Below, piece by piece: positions 34,059 to 49,823 of a DNA stretch of 64,000 nucleotides. The DNA lies in the NCBI GenBank assembly GCA_029212405.1, contig JARGNR010000005.1, positions 2,621 through 66,620 on the forward strand, in the 5' to 3' direction. The notes below the pieces were generated by a model. The model was given only the letters and a program-made list of their open reading frames with translations, was not told the origin of the DNA and ran no database searches. The translations under genes were made by a program, and so were the position numbers. Every line of letters starts with the position of its first letter. Position 1 is the first letter of the stretch. The DNA is from Saprospiraceae bacterium. GTDB lineage: Bacteria; Bacteroidota; Bacteroidia; Chitinophagales; Saprospiraceae.

Positions 34059-34997
34059 TTAATTTTTAATAAACTTTTTCACCTCTCTATTTTCCAGTCC
34101 AGTAAACTGAATAAAGTACATGCCTGGACTGAATTCTTCAACATTGATGTTTAATTCAGAATCCTTTCCAATTTTCTTTTCCAACATGAGTTGTCCAGAA
34201 GCACTATAAATTTCAAGTTTGTGATATAGCAAATCGGAATTTAATTCTATCATTAAATCGTTGAGCACCGGGTTTGGGTTTATTTTCACTTCGTTTGTCT
34301 CTCCATAAACATATCTGGTATTGGACGCATCATCCATACCTTCGTAATTGGCATTTTCTCCTGAATAATATACCCATTCAAGTGTTCCTGTCTGATCAAA
34401 ACTAAATAAAAATAATATGTCATCATCTTCAATCACGTTCTGTTCACTTACTAGATATGGAGAAGTGCCAGTCAACAAAATATTGTCGGTTTCCTGATTG
34501 GTCGTTTCTAAGATTGAGGGTAAAATATCGTCCAGAATTGTACTTGTGACATTAGTCCGTATATCAAATGTATTATCTTTTAGTATGCCATCATCTTCAT
34601 CATCATTGTATCCAATAAGCATGACGGCACCTACGTGAGCAGGTAAAGCAACTACTTCATGGCAGAAAGTTTTACCCTTAAAACGTTTACATTTCTTTAT
34701 TTCAAAACAAATTTCAGCTGAACATCCATCCGCATTGGTTACCGTCAAACAGTACATACCTTTGGGTAAATCATTGATCATGTTTACTAGATCAGAATTT
34801 GTAAATGTTGTACTTACTGGTCCAGTTAAGACATAGGAGTAAGGTCCGTTGCTATTATCATCTAAGGTAATAGTTATGGATCCATCTGCGGGGCCTGTTG
34901 CATGATTTATTGTTATTGTGATATCTGAGCAAAAGCCAGATGTTAATGAAGCAATCATTATAACAATTGCCATTATATTTTTATATATTATTTTCAT
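34059..34997 (-). CDS. T9SS-sorted surface protein with an SprB-type repeat
   Basis: Start re-called to MKIIYKNIMAIVIMIASL (ATG at 34997, ATGA overlap with the upstream stop). SprB-like GPADGSITITL..GPYSYVL...GMYCLTVTNADGC. C-terminal sorting domain KINPNPVLNDLMIEL...GMYFIQF. Confidence 0.6.
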   Translation of the reverse strand: MKIIYKNIMAIVIMIASLTSGFCSDITITINHATGPADGSITITLDDNSNGPYSYVLTGPVSTTFTNSDLVNMINDLPKGMYCLTVTNADGCSAEICFEIKKCKRFKGKTFCHEVVALPAHVGAVMLIGYNDDEDDGILKDNTFDIRTNVTSTILDDILPSILETTNQETDNILLTGTSPYLVSEQNVIEDDDILFLFSFDQTGTLEWVYYSGENANYEGMDDASNTRYVYGETNEVKINPNPVLNDLMIELNSDLLYHKLEIYSASGQLMLEKKIGKDSELNINVEEFSPGMYFIQFTGLENREVKKFIKN

Positions 34998-35662
34998 TTC
35001 ATTGAGTTTAAATGTGATTTTAAAATAGCCAATTGGTTTTGAGAAATACAATCGTATTGCATGTAATCGTTCAGAATAGTTTCAGCTATACCATTACTTT
35101 TCACTGAGTTTACGGCAGCAAAAATTAGGTTGTCCACTTTGTCCTGATATGTTTCGTCGCATATCTTTTCATTGAGATAATCAAAATAAATCATCGATGG
35201 ATTCTTCATTAAAAACAGAAAAACGGGATAATTAAATAATTCTTCGAATTGACCTTCTTCTGGTTCAAAAATGAATGTATTGATATTTTCTATCAACTGT
35301 TCTAAGCCATACTGATGTTTACTAATGACACTGTAAATACTATCTCTTGCATTTAGCGAAATTTTAGGTGACAATGAATACTCCCATAATTCGTCGATGT
35401 TTTTTCTTATTTTGACATCGATTGAATCCAAATTTGGAAATTTGTGCTTAGTAGTTCTTCTCGAATATAAAATTGATTTGAGTTTTCTAATTTTAGAGAC
35501 AATATCAATCAATTCTGCATCACTTAATGATTTGTGAGCTCTCAAAGCATTCAAAGAATCAATACTTTGTGTTATCTGCTCTTTAGACAACTTACTGACT
35601 TCTTGACATAATAGGTGCTTAAAAGGAAGAACAAATAATATCAGGAATAATAATTTCTTCAT
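34994..35662 (-). CDS. hypothetical secreted helical protein
   Basis: 222 aa with a signal peptide (LLFLILFVLPFKHLLCQ). Begins 1 nt after the upstream gene and overlaps the downstream gene by 4 nt. Confidence 0.45.
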   Translation of the reverse strand: MKKLLFLILFVLPFKHLLCQEVSKLSKEQITQSIDSLNALRAHKSLSDAELIDIVSKIRKLKSILYSRRTTKHKFPNLDSIDVKIRKNIDELWEYSLSPKISLNARDSIYSVISKHQYGLEQLIENINTFIFEPEEGQFEELFNYPVFLFLMKNPSMIYFDYLNEKICDETYQDKVDNLIFAAVNSVKSNGIAETILNDYMQYDCISQNQLAILKSHLNSMK

Positions 35663-35663
35663 A

Positions 35664-37232
35664 TTAGAATGAGTTTAAATTGATGTGCCCCTCTTGAATT
35701 TTGCTTAGTTTTTGATTATTTGATTTGTAGACATCAAATTCTACACTATCCAAATCCTTAAAATCGATACTTCCCTGAGTTATCACTATGCTTAATCCAT
35801 CTGCGCTTCCTACCCAAGAGTCAACACTATTCCAATCCAGAATGGTTCCATTCAAGATACCAGCATTATCTAGCAAAATCCATTGATTTTGAGTCTCTAA
35901 ATAAGTCAATGACCATACTGATGATGTTGCAGTTGCGTTCGCACTTATGTTAAATTCTCCATTTCCTTCAGGGGCAATTCCAAAAGCCGGTCTAACACCA
36001 GTAACACCAGCAATATCATTATCCACTTCCAATTTATTTTCACCCTTTTTAAAGTTGAAAGAAACACTCCATTCTTTGAAAGCCGAAGCTCTTGATCCAA
36101 AAGTATTTTGATCTGGATCGACAATTGGTGGTCTACCTTGAATAGCAACTCTTACAAAATCTTTAAAATTGACACGCTCCATGATAAATGAGAAATCCTC
36201 AAAATATAAAGGTTTGCTTGGTGGATCTTCTACATAAATATAATTATCCGATGGTATAAAATCTTCATCAAAAATAGACGATGTATCATCATTCGGTTTT
36301 TCGTTATCCTGATTACTATCAGATGGAAATTGAAAGCTTGGTAAGTCCGTAATGTCAGTCACACCTTCAACAATAGCTTTTCTCAAACCTTCCTTCTGGC
36401 GAGTCAAATCAAAATTAACAATATCCCCGGCTCCATCAGGGAGTACTTTAAATTCAAATAACATTCTACCTCCAATCGTTTTGTTCTCTGTGCCCCCCTC
36501 GCTTCTATGCTCTCCAAAACCATAAAGTTGTCCATCTGCAGATCTTAGCGTTACATTTACGTGATTTACTAATTTGGAGTAATTAAGATTGGATAATTCA
36601 CCAGACCCTGCTTCAGGAGAATACAGTTTAGTAATATATACATCTTCTACCATGCTCCATACTCCAGTAGCTCTGACCTTATCAATTACTTTCGAATTTT
36701 CATCTAGTAAGTGTAGTTCAATGTCCTGAAGGGAACTACTTTCATTGATAGCTTCAATATAAAGTGTTTTATCTAATTCACTACCGTCAATAACAATTTC
36801 ATTATTCGAATCAAAATTAACCAGCCCTCCCTTTGTCGGAGAAGTCCACATCCGTATATCCCCAGAAATCTTCTTTAGTTTAACCATCGAAACCGTTCCA
36901 CTCTTTTGTCGAACTACAAGTTTCATTAAATCTACTTCATTACGCCCTAAAGCACTCGCAACCACTGATGTCTCCGACAATGAATTGTCTATCAACCCAT
37001 CACCATCAGTATCGTTTTTATTGGCTACGGTTCTCGCACCCACATCGTATTTCTCCCCAGACTCCAGTAATTGTCCTCCTGAGTACTCAGTTCCTGAACT
37101 CCAATCATAAAGTCCATTGTATATGTCTAAAACGACATCGCATTCAAAATTTGCACGAACTACATCTGTCTGTGAATGAGAAAGAGTAATTGCAATAAAA
37201 AATAACACTATAAATGAAATTGATTTTTTCAT
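35664..37232 (-). CDS. hypothetical secreted protein (522 aa) with a thrombospondin-type-3-like Ca-binding motif
   Basis: Signal peptide ending SHSQ. NDTDGDGLIDN motif. No other domain recognised. Confidence 0.5.
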   Translation of the reverse strand: MKKSISFIVLFFIAITLSHSQTDVVRANFECDVVLDIYNGLYDWSSGTEYSGGQLLESGEKYDVGARTVANKNDTDGDGLIDNSLSETSVVASALGRNEVDLMKLVVRQKSGTVSMVKLKKISGDIRMWTSPTKGGLVNFDSNNEIVIDGSELDKTLYIEAINESSSLQDIELHLLDENSKVIDKVRATGVWSMVEDVYITKLYSPEAGSGELSNLNYSKLVNHVNVTLRSADGQLYGFGEHRSEGGTENKTIGGRMLFEFKVLPDGAGDIVNFDLTRQKEGLRKAIVEGVTDITDLPSFQFPSDSNQDNEKPNDDTSSIFDEDFIPSDNYIYVEDPPSKPLYFEDFSFIMERVNFKDFVRVAIQGRPPIVDPDQNTFGSRASAFKEWSVSFNFKKGENKLEVDNDIAGVTGVRPAFGIAPEGNGEFNISANATATSSVWSLTYLETQNQWILLDNAGILNGTILDWNSVDSWVGSADGLSIVITQGSIDFKDLDSVEFDVYKSNNQKLSKIQEGHINLNSF

Positions 37233-37498: not shown

Positions 37499-38575
37499 TT
37501 ATTGCCCATCCACCATTCCTCTCATTCCATAAAAGTCTATCGCTTTCTGCTTGAGAGGGTTGGTACTCCATTCACCCCATTCTCCTTTATATGGGTTGTA
37601 ACCACATTTCAGGGGCTTACTTAAAATGTCTTCCGGCTCATCTACATAAGCCCTGCAGTCTGTGCAGATATATCGGAATTCACAGTCTTTACAGACATGG
37701 ATTTTGTCTTTATTAATATTCCAGTATTTTTTAAAGTCTGGATTTTCGACTGCTTCAGTAAGAGTGGTATCTACTATATTCCCAAAGGTCTCTTTCATCG
37801 AAGGGCAGTTTTTAATATTGCCATCTGAGTCTATGGAGATCTTCCGATTGAGACAAGAATTATGATTAAGGGATTCAGTAAACATTTTAATATTGGGATT
37901 TAAACTACCGAAAGTTATCTTTCCACAGGAGTTAATATTTAACTTTTCTTGACTTTGATAAAAAATGTTGTCTTCTTCAAAATAAACAATATCATTGGAT
38001 TCGCAACCAAATGCAGCAATCATCATTATTCTTGGTTCTAAAACGAACAAGCCCTGAATCTCACTTCTTTGTTGCCATCTCACTTTTTTGCACAATATAT
38101 TTATACTTTGAAAAGCAGAATTTTTAAACATTTCCAAAATCTTTTCTAAGTCATCCACCACACAATCAAATAAAACTCTCAACTCCAGAGATTTACAACC
38201 CATCATATTGAGCTCAAAAAGTATTTTTTCAAGTTTATCAGTCTGCCTATCTCCTATTTCAATTATAGCGTTTGATATTGCACCCGGAAAATCCCATTCT
38301 AAAGGCATGGGAATAAAAATGTCTGGACAATCCGAAAAGTGGCCCAAATTATTCAAAACTAGATAGTCCAAAAACTCTTGCAATATTGGCAATTCGTCTT
38401 TTGAAAAGTATTCCACATAACGGGAATGAGGTAAATCTCTAATTTTGTTTAGCGCACCTTCTAGTGCCAACGGAAATTTATAAACTTCATTAAATTGCAA
38501 ATCGCAAATAGCTATTTCTTGAGCGCCTTTTACCACCTTACAGTTTTCAAACAATCGAAATATTTTATTATTCAC
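37499..38575 (-). CDS. SPASM-domain peptide maturase lacking the radical-SAM CxxxCxxC motif (the 'grasp-with-spasm' SPASM partner type)
   Basis: GTG start 2 nt after the preceding stop. The C-terminus has the full 7-Cys SPASM pattern C-x10-G-x4-C ... CKDCEFRYICTDC ... C. No CxxxCxxC occurs anywhere in the 358 aa. Confidence 0.75.
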   Translation of the reverse strand: MNNKIFRLFENCKVVKGAQEIAICDLQFNEVYKFPLALEGALNKIRDLPHSRYVEYFSKDELPILQEFLDYLVLNNLGHFSDCPDIFIPMPLEWDFPGAISNAIIEIGDRQTDKLEKILFELNMMGCKSLELRVLFDCVVDDLEKILEMFKNSAFQSINILCKKVRWQQRSEIQGLFVLEPRIMMIAAFGCESNDIVYFEEDNIFYQSQEKLNINSCGKITFGSLNPNIKMFTESLNHNSCLNRKISIDSDGNIKNCPSMKETFGNIVDTTLTEAVENPDFKKYWNINKDKIHVCKDCEFRYICTDCRAYVDEPEDILSKPLKCGYNPYKGEWGEWSTNPLKQKAIDFYGMRGMVDGQ

Positions 38576-38577
38576 CT

Positions 38578-38757
38578 TTACAATTTTACAATTTGAGAAA
38601 TTTCTTTGTAAAACCTCTCAACATAGAATCCAGGTGTTCCGAATTTATCACAATTGACTCCCTTGGGCTTCGAGTTGTTCTTTTTTACTTTAAAATTTGT
38701 AGTATACTTTAAGGGAATGTACTTTTCCCAACTAAGCTTGTTGACATTATTTTCCAT
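38578..38757 (-). CDS. unannotated 59-aa basic ORF between the ATP-grasp and SPASM genes
   Basis: Hand translation gives MENNVNKLSWEKYIPLKYTTNFKVKKNNSKPKGVNCDKFGTPGFYVERFYKEISQIVKL. The ATG is 3 nt after the ATP-grasp stop, and its TAA is 2 nt before the SPASM GTG. It is one codon below the ORF-track cutoff. Confidence 0.45.
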   Translation of the reverse strand: MENNVNKLSWEKYIPLKYTTNFKVKKNNSKPKGVNCDKFGTPGFYVERFYKEISQIVKL

Positions 38758-38760
38758 ATG

Positions 38761-39630
38761 CTATATTACATTTTTTGCAATTTCCCTATCTATTTGATAA
38801 TTACATGACTTAATTAAGAAATCATATTGTCCATTAGGATTGATTTCCAGAAAATACCAAATACCATCATTGATTATAAAATCAATTGATCCCGTTTTGA
38901 AACCAGTTATAGCCTTAAATTTTCGTGTAGATTCCAAAACATTTTGCGGAACTCGAATTGGTACTTCTCTTCTTATTTTCACGTTCCATATATCTGTAGT
39001 ATGGTCTTCATCTTTGACCACAAATGCCATAGCCCAAAATTTGTCATGAAAGAAAAACATCCGCACTTCGACCTCTCTTTTAATGCATTGTTGAAAGAAA
39101 GTAGGATAGAAATTCTCTTCTAAATGTGCGACATCTTCCTCTTCTATCAAAGATGCCCTAAACGCCATATCATTTTGGCCTTCGATAATATTATGTGGTG
39201 CGCTCAAAGGTTTTGTGATAACCCTAAAGCCATTATCTAAGAACTTTAAAAGTTCGCTTTTCTGAGTAGTTAGTAAATATGCCGGTATTGAATAACCAGA
39301 CTCAGATGCTTTCTTCAACATCAATATTCTAGAGGGCTCTTCAAATTTTCCGGTTCCAATAAATTGCTCTTTATTCGCACTTTCAAAGAATTCATACCAA
39401 TACGCCCTTAATTCCTTATATAGATATTTATGCATCAAGCTTTTTTCAGCTGGAACAGGCAATGAAAACTTACGACTATAGATTATCGATTTATCGTCAA
39501 TTGGCAGTTTGAATTCAGGAAAATTCATCTGATCCAGACAATATCTTTTTGCTGGTTTATCATAATAAACTAACCACTCTTGTAATCTATCACAAGAATA
39601 ATCCCTAGAAATAGTTAAAATAATTAGCAT
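38761..39630 (-). CDS. ATP-grasp ribosomal peptide maturase (the 'grasp-with-spasm' ATP-grasp type)
   Basis: 289 aa. ATP-grasp C-terminal signature GSIDFIINDGIWYFLEINPNGQYDF. Adjacent to the SPASM gene and in a cluster with a GG-leader peptide. Confidence 0.75.
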   Translation of the reverse strand: MLIILTISRDYSCDRLQEWLVYYDKPAKRYCLDQMNFPEFKLPIDDKSIIYSRKFSLPVPAEKSLMHKYLYKELRAYWYEFFESANKEQFIGTGKFEEPSRILMLKKASESGYSIPAYLLTTQKSELLKFLDNGFRVITKPLSAPHNIIEGQNDMAFRASLIEEEDVAHLEENFYPTFFQQCIKREVEVRMFFFHDKFWAMAFVVKDEDHTTDIWNVKIRREVPIRVPQNVLESTRKFKAITGFKTGSIDFIINDGIWYFLEINPNGQYDFLIKSCNYQIDREIAKNVI

Positions 39631-39660
39631 GATTTATCGTAAAATTTAAAAGACTCTACA

Positions 39661-40575
39661 TTACATCCTTATACCTACTTTTTTAGCATAATTGGCAATT
39701 GGTGAAAGTCCAATTTGAAACCTTAAAGAATCCACATTACTTACATCCTCAATTGGATAAAATATATTTCTTTTTTCCTCTTTTGAGAATATTACTTGTG
39801 TTCCATACTTCTGTGGAACTCCTTTTTTTACACATACCTTATCGTACATATAGCTCAATTGATGTGGATTGAAAAGCTGTCGCAATTCGTCAAAATAAGT
39901 ATCCATAAATGAAGGCTCATGATGTAAGAATAAAACAAATAATGCCGACACTCCAAGTGGTCCAATTTTTTCATATTTGGGAACACCATTCTTTTCAATC
40001 ATCTCATTTATTCTTGTCTTGTGATCCTTACAAAGTTCTAACCATGGTAAATTTCTTGCTTCTTCCATTAAATGATTCAAACCTGATTTATTTAATTTCT
40101 CCACAAACTCTTCATCTAATCTCAACTCTAACTCAACGGTTCTAAATTGTTGATCCTCAATATGCATCAATACCAACTCTTTGAGAAGAACAGAGTCTAT
40201 ATCAAGCTTCTTTTTGGAATCATTTCGAATTCCTGTACAATAACTAGTGATGCTTTCAAATTTGATAAATTTATCATCAAAGTAACTATCAGCACACATC
40301 CGATCCTTGGTCCTTGGTTTTAAACCATTAAATTTAGATTCAAAAACCTTGTACTCACCTTCCGCATAAAGAATTTTCAATACTAAATAATTGCCAAATG
40401 ACTGCGTAAAGATGGTGTCTTTATATATGCTGCTGTTGTATTTAACTAATCCCTCAGAATACTTATTTTGATCCAACAAATCATTAAGATCATGAATAAA
40501 ATGCCATTCATCAACTTTAGTTTTTTGAGACAATACCGTTGTTGATATCAACAGAAAAACAATAACCTTAAGCAT
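39661..40575 (-). CDS. secreted hypothetical protein; the C-terminal half resembles a DUF6624-like helical domain (from memory, unverified)
   Basis: Signal peptide MLKVIVFLLISTTVLSQ. Motifs HIEDQQFR, NGVPKYEKIGPLGVSALFVLFLHH and QKYGTQ. Begins 3 nt after the upstream gene. Confidence 0.5.
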   Translation of the reverse strand: MLKVIVFLLISTTVLSQKTKVDEWHFIHDLNDLLDQNKYSEGLVKYNSSIYKDTIFTQSFGNYLVLKILYAEGEYKVFESKFNGLKPRTKDRMCADSYFDDKFIKFESITSYCTGIRNDSKKKLDIDSVLLKELVLMHIEDQQFRTVELELRLDEEFVEKLNKSGLNHLMEEARNLPWLELCKDHKTRINEMIEKNGVPKYEKIGPLGVSALFVLFLHHEPSFMDTYFDELRQLFNPHQLSYMYDKVCVKKGVPQKYGTQVIFSKEEKRNIFYPIEDVSNVDSLRFQIGLSPIANYAKKVGIRM

Positions 40576-40578
40576 GAT

Positions 40579-41259
40579 CTAATTATTTTTAACAGTTGCA
40601 GATGTACCATGATTCTTCAAAGAACTAATCTCTGTGGTCAAATCTCCAAATTGATTAAACACTAAATATCTTGGATAAGCGTGTATGTCAAACTCCTCTA
40701 TAATTTCAGACTTTGGTATTGCGAATACGTCACAATCAATATTGTGCTCTTTTAGTATTGCTTCAATATCGTCTTGTTTACTGAATGTAACTACCTTTAC
40801 TGAGTAACTGCTGAAATCTGATTCCATAAGTCTTTTCAAATGTGGCAAGTCCGTTTTACAATGAACACATTCTTTAAACATGAACATTAAAAGCGATTGG
40901 CCGTGTTGATCCTCACCGATATACTTGCTGATCAGAGTCTTTGACATATCACTATCTCCAAATAATTTATTCTTTGCAAACCTGGTTTTAATAATACTTT
41001 GATTCAGGAAGTTCTTTGGCGCCTTTTTTTCTTCTAGTATTGGCATACTCATTCCACCACCATTATCTTTGATCCCCTGCATCTGAAAGTATCTAATTAT
41101 CGGACCACTATCCTCCTTTTTAAACATTTCTATCGCCTCATTAGCGTTAAATACTCTTCCTTCAAGATCAATCACTTTGTCTAATGAAAGCTGCATATCT
41201 TGGGCGAAGACTATGTTGCATAATAGAATTACCAGAACTATATTAAATAGTTTATTCAT
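40579..41259 (-). CDS. periplasmic TlpA/ResA-like thiol-disulfide oxidoreductase
   Basis: Signal peptide. Thioredoxin-fold CxxC in LLMFMFKECVHCKTDLPHL. Overlaps the upstream gene by 8 nt. Confidence 0.65.
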   Translation of the reverse strand: MNKLFNIVLVILLCNIVFAQDMQLSLDKVIDLEGRVFNANEAIEMFKKEDSGPIIRYFQMQGIKDNGGGMSMPILEEKKAPKNFLNQSIIKTRFAKNKLFGDSDMSKTLISKYIGEDQHGQSLLMFMFKECVHCKTDLPHLKRLMESDFSSYSVKVVTFSKQDDIEAILKEHNIDCDVFAIPKSEIIEEFDIHAYPRYLVFNQFGDLTTEISSLKNHGTSATVKNN

Positions 41260-42724
41260 ATGTATTATTTAAAGCAATTTTAATAAAATTCGGATTAATG
41301 TAGGACGGAACCAATCTATTGTTAATAATTAAAACTGGAAAGTAACCTCTCGTAAATTCAGAAATACCTTTCAAATTTTTAAAGTGTACATCTTTTCTAA
41401 TAATAAACTCATTCCCATTCTGTAATATATCTTTATCCTCAGACCATGTAGAAAAGATCTCATAAGAATCTTTAAAATTTCTTTCTTCTATAGCCTTACA
41501 TAATTGCGCATAATAGCGATTATTTTTTTTAGTCTCTTTAAAATTAACGAATACTTCCAATTTCATTGAGTCTGTAATGTTAAGAGCATTCAACATATGA
41601 AGCAACAGCTCTTTACAATGTTTACATCCTAAATTTAAAAATATTTTTACAGAAATTTGGTCATCAGTTTCATTCAGATCTGCTTGCTCCATTGGGGAAC
41701 TAATGTTCATAACGTTCCCAAAATTAGTCCAAGTATAAAATTGCTGAATATTGTATTCTTTCATTTTTTGTTCGTTATTTTCCTTTGAGACAATCTGAAA
41801 TGCAAAAACATACGACATCGCCATGAAAAACATAACATTCAATATTCCCAAATTATTCAATATAGCATAATCTACTATACCAATATCGTACAAAACATAC
41901 GTATTGATAATAACTGTGAAAGCTGCAATAATTAAGCATATTCGACAAAACTCCTTGTATATAAACAGCTGAAAAAACAATGACAACCCAACAATAAAAA
42001 AAGAGGTTACAACTATAATAATTCCAGCAATATTCGCTATTGGAAAACATAGAAGTGAATACAGACACCAAAAAATCGATGACGCTACAGCCATTATTTT
42101 TAAGTCTAGTCCATAGATATTGCTTTCTAAAATGTCATCACAACTGTCCTTCTCCCCACATATCTTATTTATTATGTTAAGACTTCTATCATTATTTCTG
42201 GATCTAAAAAAGAGTAAGATTGGCAGTAAGCTACAAATGGCAAATATTTGTAAAAAAAGTGTTCCTTGAAAATAGGAACACACCAACAATAAAATAATTA
42301 TTATGGCCAGACTGAATTTCAAAATATTGTCCGGCAAAAATGAATATTTGGTTCCAAAATCATTTGAACTAACTAAAGTAGTCCTATCAATATCTTCAAC
42401 TAGTATTTTTACAGGTATAAATTTATTTTTTAAACTAAGATTCAACTCAACTTCTTTATTTGTGGATATAGAATAAAGCATTACCGTATTACCGTTTTTA
42501 TAAGAAATGTAATACTCGCCTAAGTCATCAATAAGTATAGCCGTGACATCCCCCACCAACTCTAAATCAGCCTCGACAATCATGCACTTAACATTATGAC
42601 TGACTAATATTTTGTAGAGGTCTATAATAGATTCTACTCTTATACCGGATTCTGCATTATAACTTATATCAACGTTATAAATTTTGTATATTTTCTTTAC
42701 TATTTTTTCAGTGTCAATTGGCAT
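41252..42724 (-). CDS. VKOR-family membrane oxidoreductase with an N-terminal soluble domain and a C-terminal thioredoxin-like domain
   Basis: Start re-called to the ATG at 42724 (MPIDTEK); the ORF-track TTG start lies inside the terminator T-run. VKOR loop Cys pair CGEKDSC followed by ILESNIYG. TM CxxC in EFCRICLI. C-terminal thioredoxin-like LNLGCKHCKELL. Confidence 0.7.
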   Translation of the reverse strand: MPIDTEKIVKKIYKIYNVDISYNAESGIRVESIIDLYKILVSHNVKCMIVEADLELVGDVTAILIDDLGEYYISYKNGNTVMLYSISTNKEVELNLSLKNKFIPVKILVEDIDRTTLVSSNDFGTKYSFLPDNILKFSLAIIIILLLVCSYFQGTLFLQIFAICSLLPILLFFRSRNNDRSLNIINKICGEKDSCDDILESNIYGLDLKIMAVASSIFWCLYSLLCFPIANIAGIIIVVTSFFIVGLSLFFQLFIYKEFCRICLIIAAFTVIINTYVLYDIGIVDYAILNNLGILNVMFFMAMSYVFAFQIVSKENNEQKMKEYNIQQFYTWTNFGNVMNISSPMEQADLNETDDQISVKIFLNLGCKHCKELLLHMLNALNITDSMKLEVFVNFKETKKNNRYYAQLCKAIEERNFKDSYEIFSTWSEDKDILQNGNEFIIRKDVHFKNLKGISEFTRGYFPVLIINNRLVPSYINPNFIKIALNNTYE

Positions 42725-42742
42725 GTAATATTTTCTTTGATA

Positions 42743-42782
42743 CAAAAAAAAGAGGCAAAGAAGAAATGTTCTTTTTGCCTCT
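42743..42782 (-). terminator. intrinsic terminator/attenuator immediately after the precursor gene
   Basis: The minus-strand transcript has a 9-bp perfect stem agaggcaaa / tttgcctct (extendable with mismatches), followed by a T8 run. It lies between the precursor stop (42802) and the VKOR start (42724). Confidence 0.6.
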
Positions 42783-42801
42783 CTATTTTTATTCGGGTAT
42801 G

Positions 42802-42990
42802 TTACGGTCTACATTCTCCACTGATGTCGTATGTACCTGTACCATCACTATACCATCCTTCTGCACAATCATATACATCAACGGTAGCTCCGGTAGCACC
42901 AGATTTTGAATACTCTCTTGCTCCTCCAGTTAGTTTGTTCAATTCTTTTTTTGTAACTTTTAAAGCTGAAAACTGATTTAATTTTAACAT
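42802..42990 (-). CDS. RiPP/bacteriocin precursor peptide with a Bacteroidetes-type double-glycine leader
   Basis: Re-called from the 91-aa ORF 42802..43077. Sequence: MLKLNQFSALKVTKKELNKLTGG / AREYSKSGATGATVDVYDCAEGWYSDGTGTYDISGECRP. The leader ends in the ..L.K.EL..L.GG motif. An alternative ATG lies at 43020. Confidence 0.7.
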   Translation of the reverse strand: MLKLNQFSALKVTKKELNKLTGGAREYSKSGATGATVDVYDCAEGWYSDGTGTYDISGECRP

Positions 42991-43045
42991 AATTTGAAAA
43001 TTTATAATTGATCTCCTCATTTCACGGGTTTGGAGAATAGCCCGT

Positions 43046-43357
43046 TCATACGCATGATATTGTAAATGTAGGAACATGTTGTCCTAAAAAACTGGACACA
43101 ACTGATCTTCCTCCATATATTTTTGATTTATTTACGAAACCTATTGCCAAAGTTTTATCCTCTACATAATAGTAGCTTTTTCTACATGTACAATACTCGA
43201 TTTCTGCTCCCATACATTTCATAATATCCAAGATTTCATATATAGTAGATTTGGAAAGATTAGTTCGTCTAGCTAAATCCCTAGCAGATCCAGTGGCCTT
43301 CATTTTAATTAGCTGATCTATACGTTCTATAACTTGAATTTTTTCAAAAAACCTCAT
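43046..43357 (-). CDS. small winged-helix/HTH transcriptional regulator
   Basis: 103 aa. HTH segment GSARDLARRTNLSKSTIYEILDIM. Confidence 0.55.
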   Translation of the reverse strand: MRFFEKIQVIERIDQLIKMKATGSARDLARRTNLSKSTIYEILDIMKCMGAEIEYCTCRKSYYYVEDKTLAIGFVNKSKIYGGRSVVSSFLGQHVPTFTISCV

Positions 43358-43400
43358 ATTCTATCGTTTTAGTTTGTAATTGTTATGTATTATCGAAAGC

Positions 43401-44729
43401 TTAATGCTTTTTAAGTATTGAAAGAAATTGATTAAATATCCGTGAAAAAACAGTTTTATTTTCCGTTATCACCTCTGCCGTTACTGACATTTGAGGCTTA
43501 TATTGAATGGTATCTTGATAATCTGTGATAATCGTATTAGGAATCGGAATCTTCAATTCATACATTAATCTCCCATCTCTATTTTCTTCAGGAATTTTAC
43601 TAACAACACTAACCTTAGAAGTTAACACCCCATATTCTTTATAGGGATACCCATCAAACTTTATGATTACATCCTGACCTTTCTCCACCTTACCAATATT
43701 TACACCTGGGAATTCAGCAGTCACATAATTGATTTGATTATCAGTAGGTATTATATACCCTATGGCTTGACCCTGTTTTATATTTTTTTGATCAGAAACA
43801 CCTTTTAAATAGGTGACTTTCCCATCAATTGGAGCCTCAACAATATAGGTTTTATTCCAATTCTCTATGGATGTTTTTATTCTCGAAATTATTTCGGAAA
43901 TACTAAATGTATAATTTTGAAGTGCTTTTGATCTTTTTTGCTTTAAGTTTAGTTTTTCCATCTCTAACTGGTCTATTCTAATTCTATTTTGAATTAGAAT
44001 ATTATTCATTCCTTCAAATTGTCTCTCTTTTTGCAACAATACTGCATGAAATTTCTCAAACTCAGCTCTACTAATTGCACCTTCTATCTCTAATTTCTTG
44101 TTTCGTGAATAATCCACCCTAGACAGTTCAAGTTCTTTTCCATATATCTCCATTTCTTTATTATGTGAACCGTTAAGTACTCCTATTTTTTGAATTTCTC
44201 GATTAATATTATTGATTTGCTGAAAGACTATATCGTCTCTTAACGTTTGTTGTAATTCATTAAATCGTAATTCTAACGAAGCATAATCATTTTGTAATGA
44301 ACCCAACTGCAAACCTTTCACAAAGTCTAGCTGAAGCATCATTTTTATATCTTCAATGGTGTTATATTTTTTGATCCAATGTTCTAATTGTATGATTTGA
44401 GTCTGATCAGTAGTATTGTTTATAAATAAAACCGCTTCACCTTTTTTTACATTGCATCCCTCATGAGCATATATTCGCTCAATATAACCTGTTGATCTAC
44501 TTACCAACTCAATAGGTGGTGCATCAGATGTTAACACTCCTTCCCCTATAAGTTTATCAGGATATTCAAAATAACAAGACCCTGTAAGAAGTATAGAAGT
44601 CACGATAGCTACCATAGTAATTCCAGACCTTAATAACCACCCAGGTGGGTTTCCAATAAGGTCGTGTATTTGTGACTGGGCTGTGGTGTTTATTTCTGAA
44701 TTTGTATGTGTACTTTGAGGTATAGGCAT
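43401..44729 (-). CDS. HlyD-family secretion adaptor (membrane fusion protein)
   Basis: N-terminal TM segment, lipoyl-like hairpin (VKKGEAVLFI), long coiled coil and a beta-barrel C-terminus. Sits directly downstream of the C39 ABC exporter. Confidence 0.8.
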   Translation of the reverse strand: MPIPQSTHTNSEINTTAQSQIHDLIGNPPGWLLRSGITMVAIVTSILLTGSCYFEYPDKLIGEGVLTSDAPPIELVSRSTGYIERIYAHEGCNVKKGEAVLFINNTTDQTQIIQLEHWIKKYNTIEDIKMMLQLDFVKGLQLGSLQNDYASLELRFNELQQTLRDDIVFQQINNINREIQKIGVLNGSHNKEMEIYGKELELSRVDYSRNKKLEIEGAISRAEFEKFHAVLLQKERQFEGMNNILIQNRIRIDQLEMEKLNLKQKRSKALQNYTFSISEIISRIKTSIENWNKTYIVEAPIDGKVTYLKGVSDQKNIKQGQAIGYIIPTDNQINYVTAEFPGVNIGKVEKGQDVIIKFDGYPYKEYGVLTSKVSVVSKIPEENRDGRLMYELKIPIPNTIITDYQDTIQYKPQMSVTAEVITENKTVFSRIFNQFLSILKKH

Positions 44730-44844
44730 AATTTATATGAGATTTGATCTAACCAATAGATAAATATTGGACTGGAATACAGTTTCAAATTTTAAGCAGT
44801 TAATAAAATTGACTTGTTATAGCGAATTCATTTCCACTTTTCAT

Positions 44845-47034
44845 CTAACTCCCCAATTCCAATTGATTTTTAACTAATTCAAAATATTTTCCTTTCTTTT
44901 TAACTAATTTCTTGTGCTTTCCTACCTCAACAATTTCACCATTCTCTAACACAACTATTTGATCTGCATTCTTTACAGTGCTTAGTCTATGTGCCACTAC
45001 TATTGCAGTTCTACCATATAAAAACTTCTCCAAATTATTCATAATCACTCTCTCATTACTAGCATCTAAAGAATTTGTTGCTTCATCAAAAAATAGAAAT
45101 TCAGGGTTTTTGTACATTGCTCTCGCAATAAATAATCGCTGTTTCTGGCCTTGACTTATTCCATTCCCTTTAGGCCCAATCATCGTATTCAGCCCCAAAG
45201 GCAAATCTTTAATAAAATCCATAATGTTAGCTTGAACAGATGCTGCTAAAATCTTACTGGTATTCGCTGTATCATCACTCTCTGAAATATTATTTGCAAT
45301 TGTATCAGAAAATATAAAGCCTTCTTGCATTACAACTCCACATTGTTGCCTCCATATTTTCTTATAAATTGTATCAAGATCTTGTGCTCCCACCTTAATG
45401 ACACCTCTACTAGGCTTATAAAAGCCCAATAAAAGCTTGATTAGTGTGGTCTTTCCACTTCCACTAGAACCAACAATTGCAGTGGTCTTTCCTCGTGGAA
45501 TACACAAACTAATATCCTTTAACACCTCTTCCGAAATTGGAGTATAACGAAAACTCAAATTTTTAATCAAAATATCACCCTCCGGTATCACACTAATCTT
45601 TTGTTCATCCTCTTTTTCTTCATTCTCGGCACCATGAATTTCGGAAAGTCGTTCCAAGCTAATTTTAGCATCCTGCGCTGATCTAATAAAGCCAATCATT
45701 TGTTGTAGTGGTCCGTTTAATTGACCAATAATGTATTGTACAGCCAACATCATCCCTAAGGTCATTGAACCTTCTAGAACAAGTTTCGCGGCAAAGAATG
45801 TGATGACGATATCTTTCAACTGATTAATAGACAATGCTCCCGCATCTTGGTATTGAGATATACTCAATGATTTCATTTGTGTACGAAATAGCTTTGCTTG
45901 AATTCCCGCCCACTTCCATCGTCGTTTGAGTTGACTGCCCTGAAGTTTAATTTCTGACATACCTTGGATAATCTCAATGAGAGAATCTTGATTATCAGAA
46001 AATTGCTGAAATGCACGATAATCAACCTCTTTACGCATTCTTAGGAAAAAGAAAATCCACCCAACGTATAACATGGATGAAAATATGAAAATGAAAAAAA
46101 TAGTAGTGCTATATATTGCCAACACCACACCAAAAACTACTAAATTGGTTATAGACAATAAAACACTAAGACTTGAGTTAGTCAAGAATGACTCGATTCG
46201 TTTATGATCCCCTATTCGCTGAAGTAAATCACCCGTATTTTTTGAATCAAAAAAACCCAAAGGCAAGTGCATTAACTTTAAAAGAAAATCAGCTATTAAA
46301 CTGACATTTATACGAATACTAATATGTAACAATATCCAACTCTGAATGAAGCGAACCATAGTAGAACCAACAAACAATGCAAGTTGTCCAGCCAGTACCA
46401 AATAAATAAAATTTAAGTTCTTAGTATCTATTCCAATATCAACTAAACTCTGTGTTAAAAAGGGAAATATCAATTGAAAAACTGTTCCTAATAATAAACC
46501 TATTATCAACTGGAACATCAACTTTCGATGTGGTTTTAAATACTCAAAAAGAAATCCAAAACCTTTTTTCTCATTATCTTCTAAATCCCGTTTATGAAAA
46601 CCTATGGTTGGTTCAAGCAATAAAGCAACACCTTGATTGTTATCCGTAATCCATGACTTCTCAAACTCCTCTATTGATAACTTATGCTTGGAACTTGCAG
46701 GATCAGAAATATAAACATGAGATTTCGTTATCTTATATATAACAACAAAATGATTTTGATTCCAATGTCCAATACACGGCAATGGAGCTTCAGACAAAGA
46801 AGGCATATCTTTTTTTCCAGAAGTAGGTATCTTGACAGCCAAAGTTCTCAAGCCAATAAGTTCAGCTGCTTCACTTATCCCTTTCAAACTTACACCAGCC
46901 TTATCGATATAACACTTCTCTCTTAAAAATGGAAGCGAGTATGTTTTTCCGTGTGCCTTTGCAATCATACGCAAGCAGGTAGGGCCACAATCCATTGAAT
47001 CCAACTGGCGGTAATGTTTGAATTTATCTATCAT
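44845..47034 (-). CDS. peptidase C39 domain-containing ABC transporter (double-glycine leader cleavage and export)
   Basis: N-terminal C39 domain with catalytic Cys in QLDSMDCGPTCLRM. Six-TM domain. Walker A GSSGSGKTT, signature ISQGQKQR, Walker B FLFFDEATNSLD. Confidence 0.9.
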   Translation of the reverse strand: MIDKFKHYRQLDSMDCGPTCLRMIAKAHGKTYSLPFLREKCYIDKAGVSLKGISEAAELIGLRTLAVKIPTSGKKDMPSLSEAPLPCIGHWNQNHFVVIYKITKSHVYISDPASSKHKLSIEEFEKSWITDNNQGVALLLEPTIGFHKRDLEDNEKKGFGFLFEYLKPHRKLMFQLIIGLLLGTVFQLIFPFLTQSLVDIGIDTKNLNFIYLVLAGQLALFVGSTMVRFIQSWILLHISIRINVSLIADFLLKLMHLPLGFFDSKNTGDLLQRIGDHKRIESFLTNSSLSVLLSITNLVVFGVVLAIYSTTIFFIFIFSSMLYVGWIFFFLRMRKEVDYRAFQQFSDNQDSLIEIIQGMSEIKLQGSQLKRRWKWAGIQAKLFRTQMKSLSISQYQDAGALSINQLKDIVITFFAAKLVLEGSMTLGMMLAVQYIIGQLNGPLQQMIGFIRSAQDAKISLERLSEIHGAENEEKEDEQKISVIPEGDILIKNLSFRYTPISEEVLKDISLCIPRGKTTAIVGSSGSGKTTLIKLLLGFYKPSRGVIKVGAQDLDTIYKKIWRQQCGVVMQEGFIFSDTIANNISESDDTANTSKILAASVQANIMDFIKDLPLGLNTMIGPKGNGISQGQKQRLFIARAMYKNPEFLFFDEATNSLDASNERVIMNNLEKFLYGRTAIVVAHRLSTVKNADQIVVLENGEIVEVGKHKKLVKKKGKYFELVKNQLELGS

Positions 47035-47436: not shown

Positions 47437-47470
47437 AAAAAAAGGCAATACTTTTACAAGTACTGCCTTT
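47437..47470 (-). terminator. rho-independent terminator of rplQ (end of the ribosomal super-operon)
   Basis: 12-bp stem with one mismatch (aaaggcagtact / agtattgccttt on the transcript), 6-nt loop, then a T-run. Confidence 0.6.
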
Positions 47471-47495
47471 CAATTATTTTAAAAACTCTGCGAGA

Positions 47496-47969
47496 TTATT
47501 CTTCCTCATTAGAAGCTACTGGTGGAGTGTTGGCACTTGATTTACCTTTTCCTCCTCTTCTGCTTCTTTTGCCCGATTTAGCAGCTGTCTTACCACCAGA
47601 AACATAATCTGTGTTAAAATCAACCAACTCAATCATTGCCATTTCAGCAGAATCACTTTTTCTAGCTCCTGTTCGTATAATACGTACATAACCACCTGGT
47701 CTATCAGCAATCTTATCTGCTACTACATCAAACAATTCTTTCACAACTTCCTTATTCATTAATCTAGAAAATACAACTCTTCTTGAGTGCGTTGTGTTTG
47801 TCTTAGATTTTGTGATAAGTGGCTCCACAAATACTCTTAAAGCTTTAGCCTTTGCTAGAGTAGTTGTAATTCTTTTGTGTGTAATAAGAGCCCCAGCCAA
47901 TGATTTCAACAATGCCTTTCTGTGCCCTTTCTTTCTCTTAAGGTGATTAAATTTCTTTCCGTGTCTCAT
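47496..47969 (-). CDS. rplQ: 50S ribosomal protein L17 (with a long basic/Gly-rich C-terminal tail)
   Basis: [21 protein letters not shown]... Last gene of the alpha operon. Confidence 0.95.
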
Positions 47970-48100
47970 TTCTTTTATGATTTACGTCCTGCCACTAACT
48001 ATTTACCTCTTTTACAGCTTTTAGAGAAATAAATAATCGTTTAGCAAATGATATAATTATATCCTGACCATTGTCAGAGCTGTGTGATACTAAAATTCAA

Positions 48101-49099
48101 TTAATCTTCGTCCAACTTATATTTAGACAAGTCCATTCCAAAAGTAAGGCCTTTATTCTGTAGCAACTCTTCGATCTCTACTAATGACTTCTTACCAAAG
48201 TTTCTGAACTTCAATAACTCATGAGTATCGTATCTAACCATCTCTCCTAAAGAGTTGATCTTAGCCGCTTTCAGACAGTTATACGCTCTTACAGACAAAT
48301 CAAGATCTTCAAGAGAAGTTTTAAGTAATTTACGCATATGTAATATGTGCTCATCTACTATATTCTCTTCTCTACTACTTGAATCATTAAATGTGATATT
48401 CTCATCTGTGATCAACATCAAATGTTGAATCATAATTCTAGAAGCTTCTTTAACCGCTTCTTCAGGATGAATCGTACCATCCGTTTTAACCTCAATAGTT
48501 AACTTCTCGTAATCTGTTCTCTGTCCAACTCTGGTATTTTCAATCTTATACGCTACTTTCTTAATAGGTGTATAGATTGCATCAACAGGAATTACTCCAA
48601 TCGGAGCATCTTTTGGCAAATTTTCATCAGCAGGAACATATCCTCTTCCTTTTGTAATAGTAAACTCGATTTCTAAGTTTACAGAGGGCTCCATTTGACA
48701 AATCAATAATTCAGGGTTCATCACCTTGAATATATTTGTACTAGATTCTATGTCACCAGCTAAAAATTGCTCTTTACCAGTTATAGTTAAATATATTTTT
48801 TCTTCACTATTGCTCTCATCAACAATCATTGGCTTTAATCTTACCTGCTTTAGGTTAAGAATAATGTCAACAACGTCTTGTACTACTCCTTGAATAGTTG
48901 AAAATTCGTGATCAACTCCTGCAATTCTAACCGCAGAAATTGAATACCCTTCTAGAGAGGACAATAATATTCTTCGTAGTGAATTTCCTATGGTTTGGCC
49001 AAAACCTGGCTCCAATGGTTTAAATTCAAAAGTACCGTCAAAATCATCTGCTTTTTGTAATAGTATTTTGTCAGGCTTCTGAAAATTTAGAATACTCAT
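48101..49099 (-). CDS. rpoA: DNA-directed RNA polymerase subunit alpha
   Basis: 332 aa. LEPGFGQTIGNSLRRILLSS and the C-terminal-domain motif LSVRAYNCLK. Confidence 0.95.
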   Translation of the reverse strand: MSILNFQKPDKILLQKADDFDGTFEFKPLEPGFGQTIGNSLRRILLSSLEGYSISAVRIAGVDHEFSTIQGVVQDVVDIILNLKQVRLKPMIVDESNSEEKIYLTITGKEQFLAGDIESSTNIFKVMNPELLICQMEPSVNLEIEFTITKGRGYVPADENLPKDAPIGVIPVDAIYTPIKKVAYKIENTRVGQRTDYEKLTIEVKTDGTIHPEEAVKEASRIMIQHLMLITDENITFNDSSSREENIVDEHILHMRKLLKTSLEDLDLSVRAYNCLKAAKINSLGEMVRYDTHELLKFRNFGKKSLVEIEELLQNKGLTFGMDLSKYKLDED

Positions 49100-49145
49100 T
49101 CTATCGTATTTTATGTATGAAAAGGAAATTAAATAAACAGGAATA

Positions 49146-49165
49146 GGCTATCCAAAAGGATAGCC
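49146..49165 (-). other. perfect 8-bp hairpin in the rpsD-rpoA spacer (possible internal attenuator or processing site)
   Basis: ggctatcc-aaaa-ggatagcc read directly. Only a weak T-tract follows on the minus strand. Confidence 0.3.
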
Positions 49166-49175
49166 AATTCTGATA

Positions 49176-49790
49176 TTACTTAGAGTATAATTCAACAATC
49201 AATTGTTCATTGATCTTCTCTGGAATTTTATCTCTTTCTGGATAAGCTAAGAATTTGCCTTCCATCCTTTCTGGATTCCATTCTAGCCAGCCCCAATTTC
49301 TAACATCTGATTTAGATTTAATTGAGTTGTCTATTACGTCCAGACTTCTACTTTTTCCTCTAATGGAAACTACATCACCAGGTCTTAATAACATGGATGG
49401 TACATTTGTAACCACCCCATTAACCATGATGTGTTTGTGAGAAACTAGCTGTCTTGCGCCTCTTCTAGTAGGTGCAATTCCTAATCTGAAAACAGTATTA
49501 TCAAGTCTTCCTTCTAGATACTGCAACAATATTTCACCTGTTACACCACTCTTTCTACTTGCTTTCTCAAATAGGTTTCTAAATTGACGCTCCAACATTC
49601 CGTATGTGTACTTAGCTTTTTGCTTTTCCATCAACTGTAATGCATAATCAGACTTTTGACGTCTTCTCTTATTTCCACCACCGTGTTGACCCGGAGCATA
49701 TTTTCTTCTTTCAAATGCTTTGTCAGCACCGAATATAGCCTCGCCTAACGCTCTTGCTTTCTTAGTTCTTGGTCCAGTATATCTTGCCAT
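49176..49790 (-). CDS. rpsD: 30S ribosomal protein S4
   Basis: [16 protein letters not shown]...; operon position. Confidence 0.95.
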
Positions 49791-49823
49791 TAAACTTTTA
49801 TTTTATCAGTTATAAAACTGAAA

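Follow-up and report, generated by a model that had tools for sequence, protein, structure and literature searches.

Grasp-with-spasm (Gws) loci, in which the gene of an ATP-grasp ligase stands with that of an iron-sulfur (Fe-S) SPASM protein, occur in Bacteroidota only and are among the largest predicted families of ribosomally made, post-translationally modified peptides (RiPPs) without a characterised product. They have been described as ATP-grasp 'branch 5', with 190 loci, a small LPL-family protein and a 'cluster 23' protein (Makarova 2022, PMC8939145). The same paper proposed a chaperone or leader-like role for the LPL family, called the SPASM protein a radical S-adenosylmethionine (SAM) family maturase and proposed that it might make thioethers; among the works cited there are earlier computational descriptions of Bacteroidetes ATP-grasp/SPASM loci. 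Every member of RODEO graspetide group 14 co-occurs with a SPASM protein (PMC13097080, 2026), and the names gwsG and gwsS come from a 2026 P. gingivalis preprint, where the genes lie on Porphyromonas conjugative elements. The family is curated as NCBIfam TIGR04192/TIGR04193, and the role of its SPASM protein has been a question since the computational definition. Here we describe a locus in a 64,000-nucleotide stretch of an uncultured Saprospiraceae genome (GenBank assembly GCA_029212405.1, contig JARGNR010000005.1, positions 2,621 to 66,620 of the forward strand), hereafter the window. The locus is a complete RiPP cluster for a peptide predicted to be secreted and enzymatically cross-linked, and a composite of the known grasp-with-spasm kind with an export and oxidation module, both arranged around one precursor gene. 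Particular to it are the disulfide module inside the operon, uncommon in related loci and recurrent elsewhere, and a ligase from a divergent sub-branch.

An original prediction, made from the letters of the sequence alone, had placed ten co-directional genes on the minus strand, and all ten open reading frames (ORFs) were found where it put them (Table 1). It had also described the distal block as having spacers of 30 nt or less, or overlaps; from the fusion gene to the SPASM gene we measured -8, 3, 30, 3 and 2 nt, and these genes are evidently one transcription unit. The two redox genes are co-transcribed with the Gws genes, since they are sandwiched between precursor and DUF6624 genes with an 8-nt overlap and a 3-nt spacer. 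We consider it likely that the locus is one operon-like cluster in which two recurrent Bacteroidota modules share a single precursor.

Table 1. Features of the cluster in order of transcription; positions are those of the window (aa, amino acids).
Feature	Position	Strand	Description or basis
Peptidase-containing ATP-binding cassette (ABC) transporter (PCAT) exporter, 729 aa	44845..47034	-	start MIDKFKHYRQLDSMDCGPTC; C39, transmembrane and ATPase domains
HlyD-family periplasmic adaptor	43401..44729	-	one N-terminal membrane helix; Pfam HlyD_3
Helix-turn-helix (HTH)-like protein, 103 aa	43046..43357	-	sub-threshold HTH Pfam matches
Precursor, 62 aa	42802..42990	-	23-aa double-glycine leader MLKLNQFSALKVTKKELNKLTGG and 39-aa core AREYSKSGATGATVDVYDCAEGWYSDGTGTYDISGECRP
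Terminator-like hairpin and U-run, directly after precursor	42745..42784	-	folding
C39-like/VKOR/DsbA-like fusion, 490/497 aa	41252..42724/42745	-	homologue alignment
TlpA/ResA/StoA-like secreted CVHC protein, 226 aa	40579..41259	-	signal-peptide-like N-terminus MNKLFNIVLVILLCNIVFAQD
Tetratricopeptide repeat (TPR)-like and DUF6624 secreted protein, 304 aa	39661..40575	-	Pfam DUF6624
ATP-grasp peptide ligase (GwsG-like), divergent shortened sub-branch	38761..39630	-	TIGR04192 best family
LPL-family small protein, 59 aa	38578..38757	-	iterated profile and shared motifs
GwsS SPASM Fe-S protein	37499..38575	-	RiPP recognition element (RRE)-like, short alpha/beta and SPASM domains; TIGR04193

We examined the neighborhoods of related genes. 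Scanning GTDB species genomes with a pattern yielded 574 confirmed SPASM relatives; the analysis covered the 79 best loci, every one of them in Bacteroidota. The ATP-grasp gene adjoins the SPASM gene in 74 of the 79. Iterated profiles find a small LPL-family ORF in 61 loci and the DUF6624 protein in 56, mostly ending at the start of the ATP-grasp gene; single-sequence phmmer searches had under-counted both (10 loci for DUF6624, 2 for the 59-aa ORF), and the iterated counts were accepted as consistent in E-values, lengths and positions, with some drift possible. Precursors were screened by a regular expression with an opposite-strand control, not by a model: of 65 ligase genes, 58 have a double-glycine (GG) leader peptide within 3.5 kb upstream on their own strand, and 8 have one in the same intervals on the opposite strand. 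Co-conservation of the gene set with GG-leader peptides, on which the original prediction had staked its case, is thereby borne out. These peptides have few leader types and hypervariable cores, which are throughout rich in Ser/Thr (19%) and Asp/Glu (15%).

The recurrent order is GG peptide, DUF6624 protein, ATP-grasp ligase, LPL ORF and SPASM protein. The cluster has it too, with 3 and 2 nt between its last three genes, a GG precursor and a C39-ABC exporter upstream on the same strand, and a secreted DUF6624 protein. The locus is thus like other grasp-with-spasm systems in its core genes and their order, in a hypervariable core rich in Ser, Thr, Asp and Glu, and in having a C39-ABC exporter with HlyD. 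It is unlike the typical ones in that its ligase sub-branch falls below the family cut-off, its LPL motif and one DUF6624 residue are altered, and the fusion and redoxin genes stand between precursor and DUF6624 genes. Tandem ATP-grasp/LPL/SPASM sets, each with its own GG peptides, were seen in several related loci (three sets in L016; two or three in L003, L008, L015, L020, L022, L030, L051 and L069; numbers are our own for the related loci).

Among the family models, TIGR04192 matches the ligase best, with 134.8 bits where the cut-off is 230. Residues 67-286 are the sole aligned part, to profile positions 96-316, and the first ~95 profile positions are unmatched. Maturases of the MvdC, MvdD and SAV_5884 types match at 53-87 bits and RimK, of primary metabolism, at 17.8 bits, in keeping with the earlier view of the enzyme as a peptide maturase. 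A PDB sequence search gave graspetide macrocyclases as the only significant solved relatives: AMdnB (7m4s, E 3.9e-17), the ATP-grasp ligase 5ig8 (E 3.7e-11), an MvdD-like protein (9bou, E 2.7e-9), the ATP-grasp ligase 5ig9 (E 5.5e-8) and CdnC (7mgv, E 1.2e-7). By this homology to characterised macrolactone- and macrolactam-forming ATP-grasp enzymes the ligase belongs with the graspetides, and its ExR, GSxD and FLEINPNGQ motifs are intact. A three-residue deletion in the D[FY]RNYN segment is shared with the closest related locus, L001, whose ligase has the same shortened form (151.6 bits to TIGR04192), and 4 of 10 ligases that adjoin bona fide TIGR04193 genes also fall below the TIGR04192 cut-off (145-208 bits). 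The shortening is therefore a feature of the lineage, not damage.

Gws ligases resemble MdnB/MdnC, AMdnB, CdnC and the plesiocin-type enzymes in their homologous ATP-grasp fold and motifs and in their expected substrates, ribosomal peptides that offer Ser, Thr or Lys together with Asp or Glu. They differ from these characterised enzymes in that their precursors have a GG leader and lack a PFFARFL-type motif, an LPL-type motif residing on a separate protein, and in their obligatory pairing with the Fe-S SPASM protein. A partner requirement has a precedent in rosaritide, whose ATP-grasp ligase needs a strictly co-occurring, non-catalytic partner protein (PMC13097080). That partner has no Fe-S, SPASM or RRE features, unlike the candidate partner in the window, the SPASM protein.

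In nearly every related locus an ORF stands between ligase and SPASM genes at the position of our 59-aa ORF. Two motifs mark the family: hPh towards the N-terminus, its Pro conserved at 95%, and FYKPISKI towards the C-terminus, with Lys at 98% and Ser at 93%. YIPLKY and FYKEISQI are their counterparts in the window protein, and judged by these motifs it is a real gene and a divergent LPL-family member. FYKPISKI is a second motif of the LPL family, stronger than the one that names it. The protein probably serves the ligase and the SPASM protein as an adaptor, or as a leader element acting in trans. The strong conservation of FYKPISKI, with its Lys and Ser, would also fit a different role, in which the LPL protein is the true substrate of the SPASM protein, like PqqA or MftA, and the GG peptides are substrates of the ligase only; the RRE-like domain of the SPASM protein would then have its counterpart in PqqD/PqqE and MftB/MftC. 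Against this, the family has no GG leader or other cleavage site, the tails that follow the motif vary in length, and no acidic residue is conserved for the ligase chemistry. In the window the motif has Glu for Pro and Gln for Lys, unexpected in a cofactor-like core, and the exporters and hypervariable cores of the family point to secreted, diversifying products. We regard a substrate role for the LPL protein as most improbable, and keep to the adaptor or leader element.

The secreted protein encoded before the ligase matches Pfam DUF6624 (32.8 bits, cut-off 27) and has a signal-peptide-like N-terminus; an N-terminal hydrophobic run is present in 36 of 47 family members. Its family profile matches TPR proteins over positions 30-115, and a remote-homology search for a solved enzyme gave none, only TPR matches to the N-terminal half. 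Among 25 aligned relatives His218 is invariant, and Asp141, Arg145, Asp182 and Arg285 are at least 90% conserved; the window protein keeps His218, Asp141, Arg145 and Arg285. The DUF6624 protein is a conserved core member of the grasp-with-spasm system, and from its description 'cluster 23' of PMC8939145 is probably the same family. Homologues of ~570-635 aa, twice the usual length, were seen in L006, L019, L026, L071, L020, L072, L064 and L013, which implies fusion to an extra N-terminal domain.

The SPASM protein matches TIGR04193 over its full length (327.7 bits, cut-off 175, E 1e-97) and is a member of that family, with which its NCBI name agrees. Pfam SPASM (28.9 bits) and TIGR04085 are both above their cut-offs, and the family comprises 4,399 protein clusters at E <= 1e-5. 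Eight Cys residues are invariant among 30 aligned members (C217, C241, C257, C295, C298, C304, C307 and C324), with the canonical SPASM spacing C-x15-C (Gly four before the second Cys), C-x2-C-x5-C-x3-C and a final Cys; they are enough for two auxiliary [4Fe-4S] clusters. The radical-SAM motif CxxxCxxC is absent from the window protein, as the original prediction had it, and from all 30 members; nor do residues 1-200 of any of the 30 hold a looser motif of three Cys, and the protein has no Pfam Radical_SAM match. Absence of the motif takes the protein out of the radical-SAM family, and by its sequence it is not a radical-SAM enzyme. Published overviews give GwsS as a radical-SAM family protein; the motif is absent in every member that we examined. 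A separate partner gene for the radical-SAM step was considered and rejected, since in the 79 loci none of the ORFs of at least 220 aa within 10 kb has CxxxCxxC among residues 1-150.

An AlphaFold2 (AF2) model of the SPASM protein is of medium confidence as a whole, with a mean predicted local distance difference test (pLDDT) score of 72 (68 for the model of the fusion protein, also medium). Residues 1-210 are confident, with pLDDT about 90 in the N-terminal domain. The N-terminal ~85 residues match the RREs of TbiB1, lasso B1 and PbtF with probability 1.0 and template modelling scores of 0.6-0.7, at E-values of 0.02-0.15; over the full length, Foldseek ranks CteB and SuiB best. In length the middle domain falls short of a radical-SAM barrel. 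No Pfam PqqD match was found in the protein, and a search of the family profile against PDB sequences gave nothing meaningful, so we take the structural evidence for an RRE-like N-terminal domain as supportive rather than conclusive. GwsS is like CteB, SuiB and PqqE with PqqD in the predicted order of its RRE-like, alpha/beta and SPASM domains and in its Cys ligands for two clusters; it is unlike them in lacking CxxxCxxC (30 members) and in its shorter middle domain. The picture is of a descendant of a maturase with RRE, radical-SAM and SPASM domains, which has kept recognition and auxiliary clusters and lost the SAM cluster.

The neighbours CteB and SuiB, the full SPASM Cys set for two auxiliary clusters, the two Cys of the window core, and the radical-SAM label with its thioether proposal in PMC8939145 could together be read to mean that the SPASM protein does make Cys-dependent thioether or C-C cross-links, by way of a distant radical-SAM partner or of an unrecognised SAM site. 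We hold this to be very unlikely. Neither CxxxCxxC nor the looser motif is found in the 30 members, there is no Radical_SAM match, no motif-bearing ORF lies within 10 kb in the 79 loci, and the middle domain is below the length of the barrel. Among 76 candidate cores in related loci, 24 have no Cys and 14 have one; since 24 are Cys-free, Cys-based thioether formation is not the general function. We favour a scaffold or partner role of the SPASM protein, as set out below.

The 62-aa precursor is the sole GG-leader ORF of the cluster, and elsewhere in the window the pattern finds only chance-looking matches. Its leader is hydrophobic at -4, -7 and -12 and has Glu at -8. The core contains 8 Ser/Thr (21%), 7 Asp/Glu (18%), one Lys and two Cys (Cys19 and Cys37), a composition typical of cores in related loci. 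Precursor family models stay below threshold (TIGR04149, 16.3 bits, cut-off 25). A homologue search found one relative, 92% identical, from a second sample (contig L080), in which all core Ser, Thr, Lys, Asp, Glu and Cys residues are kept; the contig retains the order of HlyD, HTH, precursor and fusion genes, with conservative changes. In L001 a leader of the window type stands directly upstream of the ATP-grasp gene, with an unrelated core. That leader, the core composition and the residues kept in the 92%-identical variant support the 62-aa peptide as the likely Gws substrate.

Directly after the precursor gene comes the hairpin that the original prediction called an intrinsic terminator. 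It folds at -16.7 kcal/mol (z = -5.23), and 0 of 200 shuffled sequences fold equally well; owing to a single bulge it escaped a simple scan for terminators. In L001 an inverted repeat and T-run after the peptide were noted by eye, not by folding. The hairpin is probably a leaky attenuator and as such would govern how much precursor is made relative to the enzymes.

Cores of a Flavobacterium type, in L021, L023, L027, L038, L056 and L068, have a 12-residue motif, examples being DDNGNGIWDSGE, DTNGNGRMDPGE and NDDGKLDPGEC. It fits the spacing of EF-hand or DxDxDG calcium loops, and the window core has a loose version, SDGTGTYDISGEC. On sequence grounds the motif could serve in metal binding, or could be just a set of conserved cross-linking residues.

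In fusions of vitamin K epoxide reductase (VKOR) with thioredoxin, such as that of the Synechococcus structure, one chain combines a pair of Cys in a loop, a CxxC in the membrane and a periplasmic thioredoxin-fold CxxC with a cis-Pro. Cyanobacterial and actinobacterial examples reportedly serve as functional replacements of DsbB/DsbA. The fusion protein of the window has the same three Cys pairs and the Pro. With its start taken as the ATG at 42724 and not the TTG at 42745, it has a C39-like domain (~1-125), a VKOR-like bundle with loop residues Cys189 and Cys195 and the CRIC motif at 260-263, and a DsbA-like domain with CKHC at 367-370 and cis-Pro463. A PDB sequence search gave only noise and a word-indexed homologue search only the protein itself; an exhaustive HMMER search found relatives, with 36 representatives. 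Among 28 full-length members aligned, C189, C195, Q252, C260, C263, C367, C370 and P463 are invariant. Of these, 24 match VKOR (PF07884, best E 4.8e-14), 15 Peptidase_C39 and 11 Thioredoxin_4. The VKOR assignment is transitive, because the homologues match PF07884 and the window protein itself does not. The VKOR-thioredoxin fusion named by the original prediction is thus right in substance by way of the homologues, though it overlooked the N-terminal domain and the protein has no family match of its own.

That N-terminal domain aligns to the C39 domain of the window exporter (hhalign probability 97%, E 8e-11); it is C39-like and non-catalytic, since the alignment begins after the catalytic Cys and no His is conserved. 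In the model, the C-terminal domain gives matches to DsbA proteins with probability 1.0. The fusion is therefore like the cyanobacterial and actinobacterial VKOR-thioredoxin proteins in its loop Cys pair, membrane CxxC, thioredoxin CxxC and cis-Pro within one chain, and unlike them in its extra C39-like domain, in its setting in peptide-export loci and not among housekeeping functions, and in having no direct Pfam VKOR match. Judged from sequence comparison, it looks like a candidate leader-directed disulfide oxidase for GG peptides in Bacteroidota; a literature search found no paper that links VKOR with C39 or with bacteriocins. The gene next to it encodes the TlpA-like protein, with StoA (3erw, E 7e-4) and ResA as PDB relatives, which NCBI names a 'redoxin domain-containing protein'.

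The context of the fusion family was examined by a profile search of the 79 loci and in annotated plasmids. Homologues were found in 5 of the 79 Gws loci (~6%; L021, L023, L025 with two copies, and L052), and no homologue of the TlpA-like gene was detected in any. Plasmid homologues are annotated 'vitamin K epoxide reductase family protein'. On Emticicia and Hymenobacter plasmids the fusion is beside 'TlpA disulfide reductase family' genes, a PCAT and HlyD, with ATP-grasp and SPASM genes absent; an Aureibacter plasmid has fusion, transporter and HlyD without a TlpA gene. Small ORFs beside the Emticicia fusions, when translated, are Cys-rich GG-type peptides with 5-7 Cys; by the Hymenobacter module no small ORF is annotated. 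The redox pair is no hallmark of the grasp-with-spasm family and belongs to a recurrent module of its own. Here the one coherent ten-gene system of the original prediction has to be amended.

Two further occurrences of the fusion deserve description. Emticicia oligotrophica pEMTOL02 (L081; NC_018749.1, 25.4-41.0 kb) has a repeated cassette of fusion, GG-type Cys-rich peptide and TlpA genes, with two fusions and three TlpA genes followed by one peptidase-ABC transporter and HlyD; it has the look of an array in which every disulfide-rich secreted peptide is given an oxidase to itself. In Parabacteroides distasonis (L082; NZ_OY725771.1, 5499-7056) the fusion is divided between two ORFs that overlap, one annotated as a C39 peptidase domain protein and the other as a thioredoxin domain protein. 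Next to them are a gene for a six-bladed beta-propeller and two small ORFs labelled hypothetical. The split is either a frameshift or natural.

Bacteroidetocin loci offer the nearest described parallel to the module. A thiol oxidoreductase gene in them is required for full activity, and its product is presumed to form disulfides (PMC6671954). The locus of the window resembles these class IIf loci in its GG peptide with a Cys pair, C39-ABC exporter and locus oxidoreductase and in that no immunity gene is identified; it is unlike them in its acidic, Ser/Thr-rich core, theirs being basic and hydrophobic, and in its ATP-grasp and SPASM maturases. Nor do the ten ORFs, whose translations were read, include a small polytopic five-helix membrane protein as in class IIf loci.

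The locus could accordingly be read as two systems side by side, a module for a bacteroidetocin-like, disulfide-bonded and otherwise unmodified peptide next to Gws genes that work on another substrate. On the Emticicia and Hymenobacter plasmids the module is self-contained, with ATP-grasp and SPASM missing, the Aureibacter plasmid has it without TlpA, and its association with Cys-rich GG peptides is confirmed in Emticicia; in L021 and L025 the fusion sits with Cys-rich peptides of its own, downstream of the Gws genes, and in the window a strong hairpin divides the precursor gene from all genes downstream. Against this, the cluster has a single GG-leader peptide, and 58 of 65 Gws ligase genes have such a peptide upstream. 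In L001 the leader type immediately precedes the ATP-grasp gene, and redox genes do not intervene. The core is rich in Ser, Thr, Asp and Glu like Gws cores, and has two Cys against the 5-7 of the plasmid peptides. The redox genes moreover lie between precursor and DUF6624 genes, with the 8-nt overlap and 3-nt spacer given above. We think two independent systems unlikely, and continue with a single precursor shared by both modules.

The exporter carries its catalytic Cys in the sequence QLDSMDCGPTC of an N-terminal C39 double-glycine peptidase. It matches Peptidase_C39 (118.9 bits, 1.7e-34), ABC_membrane (113.4 bits, 2.1e-32) and ABC_tran (106.4 bits, 2.4e-30), all above the Pfam cut-offs, and with C39 domain and catalytic Cys, transmembrane domain and ATPase in a single chain it is a PCAT. 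Its top NCBIfam models are bacteriocin/NHLP exporters, every one below its equivalog cut-off, and NCBI names it 'peptidase domain-containing ABC transporter'. Homologues are found in 47 of the 79 loci. The adaptor matches HlyD_3 at 41.2 bits (cut-off 22.2) and TIGR01843 with E 9e-34, yet below cut-off; its homologues adjoin the exporter in 44 of the 79. The HTH-like protein is a probable regulator of the pathway, with homologues between exporter genes and precursor in 18 of the 79 loci and in the near-identical contig L080.

From the observed gene content, family assignments, conserved Cys and motifs, synteny and co-occurrence we infer the following chemical steps, their order, the disulfide, the compartments and the biological role. 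Since the hairpin would attenuate read-through, the precursor would be produced in excess. In the cytoplasm the ATP-grasp ligase would activate core Asp/Glu residues and join them to Ser/Thr as esters or to Lys as an amide. It would act with the SPASM protein, whose RRE-like N-terminal domain, rather than a radical-SAM domain, would recognise the peptide; this domain and the LPL protein, the latter probably as adaptor or in-trans leader element, may give the recognition that a GG leader lacks for ATP-grasp enzymes. The two [4Fe-4S] clusters might stabilise the complex or might carry out a redox step of a non-radical-SAM kind, and we favour the scaffold or partner role. The C39-ABC exporter would then cut after the double glycine and, with HlyD, export the core from the cytoplasm. 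The fusion would oxidise core Cys19 and Cys37 to a disulfide and pass the electrons to quinone, the secreted TlpA-like redoxin would correct or reduce mis-oxidised species as a proofreading step, and the secreted TPR/DUF6624 protein may bind or trim the exported peptide.

The original prediction went further, to three chemistries on one core, which is pure conjecture. On the boldest reading the SPASM protein would be a radical-SAM-less Fe-S enzyme, recruited through its RRE-like domain and the LPL adaptor, with a SPASM modification as yet undescribed, and the peptide would carry an ester or amide, an Fe-S-dependent link and a disulfide from a VKOR/DsbA fusion that recognises leaders. This we doubt; if true, the chemistry would be new for SPASM proteins, and the fusion would stand for a novel class of disulfide oxidases dedicated to their substrates.

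Several observations tell against the cluster as we read it. The ligase scores 134.8 bits where membership of TIGR04192 calls for 230, is without ~20-25 N-terminal residues and has a divergent N-terminal domain. The DUF6624 protein has Cys182 where at least 90% of relatives have Asp. The HTH and TlpA-like calls of the original prediction find weak matches that lie below curated cut-offs: HTH_7 at 21.9 bits and HTH_11 at 19.3 bits for the former, and StoA at 20.1 bits (cut-off 210), AhpC-TSA at 22.7 (26) and Thioredoxin_8 at 21.9 (27) for the latter. The fusion has no match in Pfam or NCBIfam, even when searched as three segments at E <= 10; hydropathy gives it 5 or 6 helices, and the membrane side of its C39-like domain is ambiguous. 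AF2 models the cluster-binding SPASM domain poorly, and all Foldseek E-values of the SPASM model exceed 1e-3. No TolC-like outer-membrane channel and no immunity gene were found among the window ORFs scanned, as had been noted from the sequence. The locus frequencies are biased to closer relatives, because the 79 loci come from the best 80 of the 574. A literature search found no product, mass shift or activity for any grasp-with-spasm member. The original prediction, which knew of no determined product or chemistry, was correct here, the family being experimentally uncharacterised; its description of the family as only 'computationally defined' passes over a fuller literature (PMC8939145, PMC13097080 and the preprint).

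Some of these points, namely the low ligase score with its ~95 unmatched profile positions, the D182C replacement in the DUF6624 protein and FYKEISQI in place of FYKPISKI in the LPL protein, would also be expected if the cluster were decaying or inactive in its source organism. That is scarcely credible: the ten ORFs are intact and tightly spaced, the ligase retains ExR, GSxD and ExN, its shortened form recurs in the independent locus L001 (151.6 bits) and 4 of 10 TIGR04193-adjacent ligases are likewise below cut-off, and the second sample has a 92%-identical precursor in the same gene order with conservative changes.

The locus is a compact test case: as precursor, ligase, LPL protein and SPASM protein are each present once, the chemistry could be read from a single peptide. 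Its best leads are family-wide and not specific to the window. One is the RRE-SPASM protein, radical-SAM-less and with the LPL protein as partner; the other is the C39-like/VKOR/DsbA fusion, whose family has hardly been described. The same opportunities exist in many further loci, and as the source is uncultured any experiment would need gene synthesis.

The source record has locus tags P1U56_02545 to about 02590 for the cluster. It gives functional names only to the SPASM gene, the exporter and the 'redoxin'; ATP-grasp ligase, precursor, HlyD and fusion are 'hypothetical', and the 59-aa ORF is without annotation. The cluster begins past a strong rplQ terminator (47440-47471, 14-bp stem) and ends at a 266-nt gap with a hairpin, after which come three secreted-protein genes. 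Its flanks are the rplQ end of the ribosomal-protein/rpoA operon on one side and carA-eno-sucD on the other, so that cluster and secreted-protein genes together lie between housekeeping blocks (window positions 29863-33534 and 47440-50210). G+C is slightly lower in the cluster, 0.31-0.33 against 0.35-0.39 in the flanks. The low G+C and the position suggest that an island was inserted among housekeeping genes, although mobility genes were not seen.

The three secreted-protein genes (34059-37232, minus strand) are tightly packed directly downstream of the cluster and encode 522, 222 and 330 aa. They were considered as members of the system and rejected, having homologues in 0 of the 79 loci and being set apart by the 266-nt gap and hairpin. 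The first two proteins (522 and 222 aa) matched no Pfam family; the last carries a C-terminal sorting domain of type IX secretion and matches the SprB repeat weakly.

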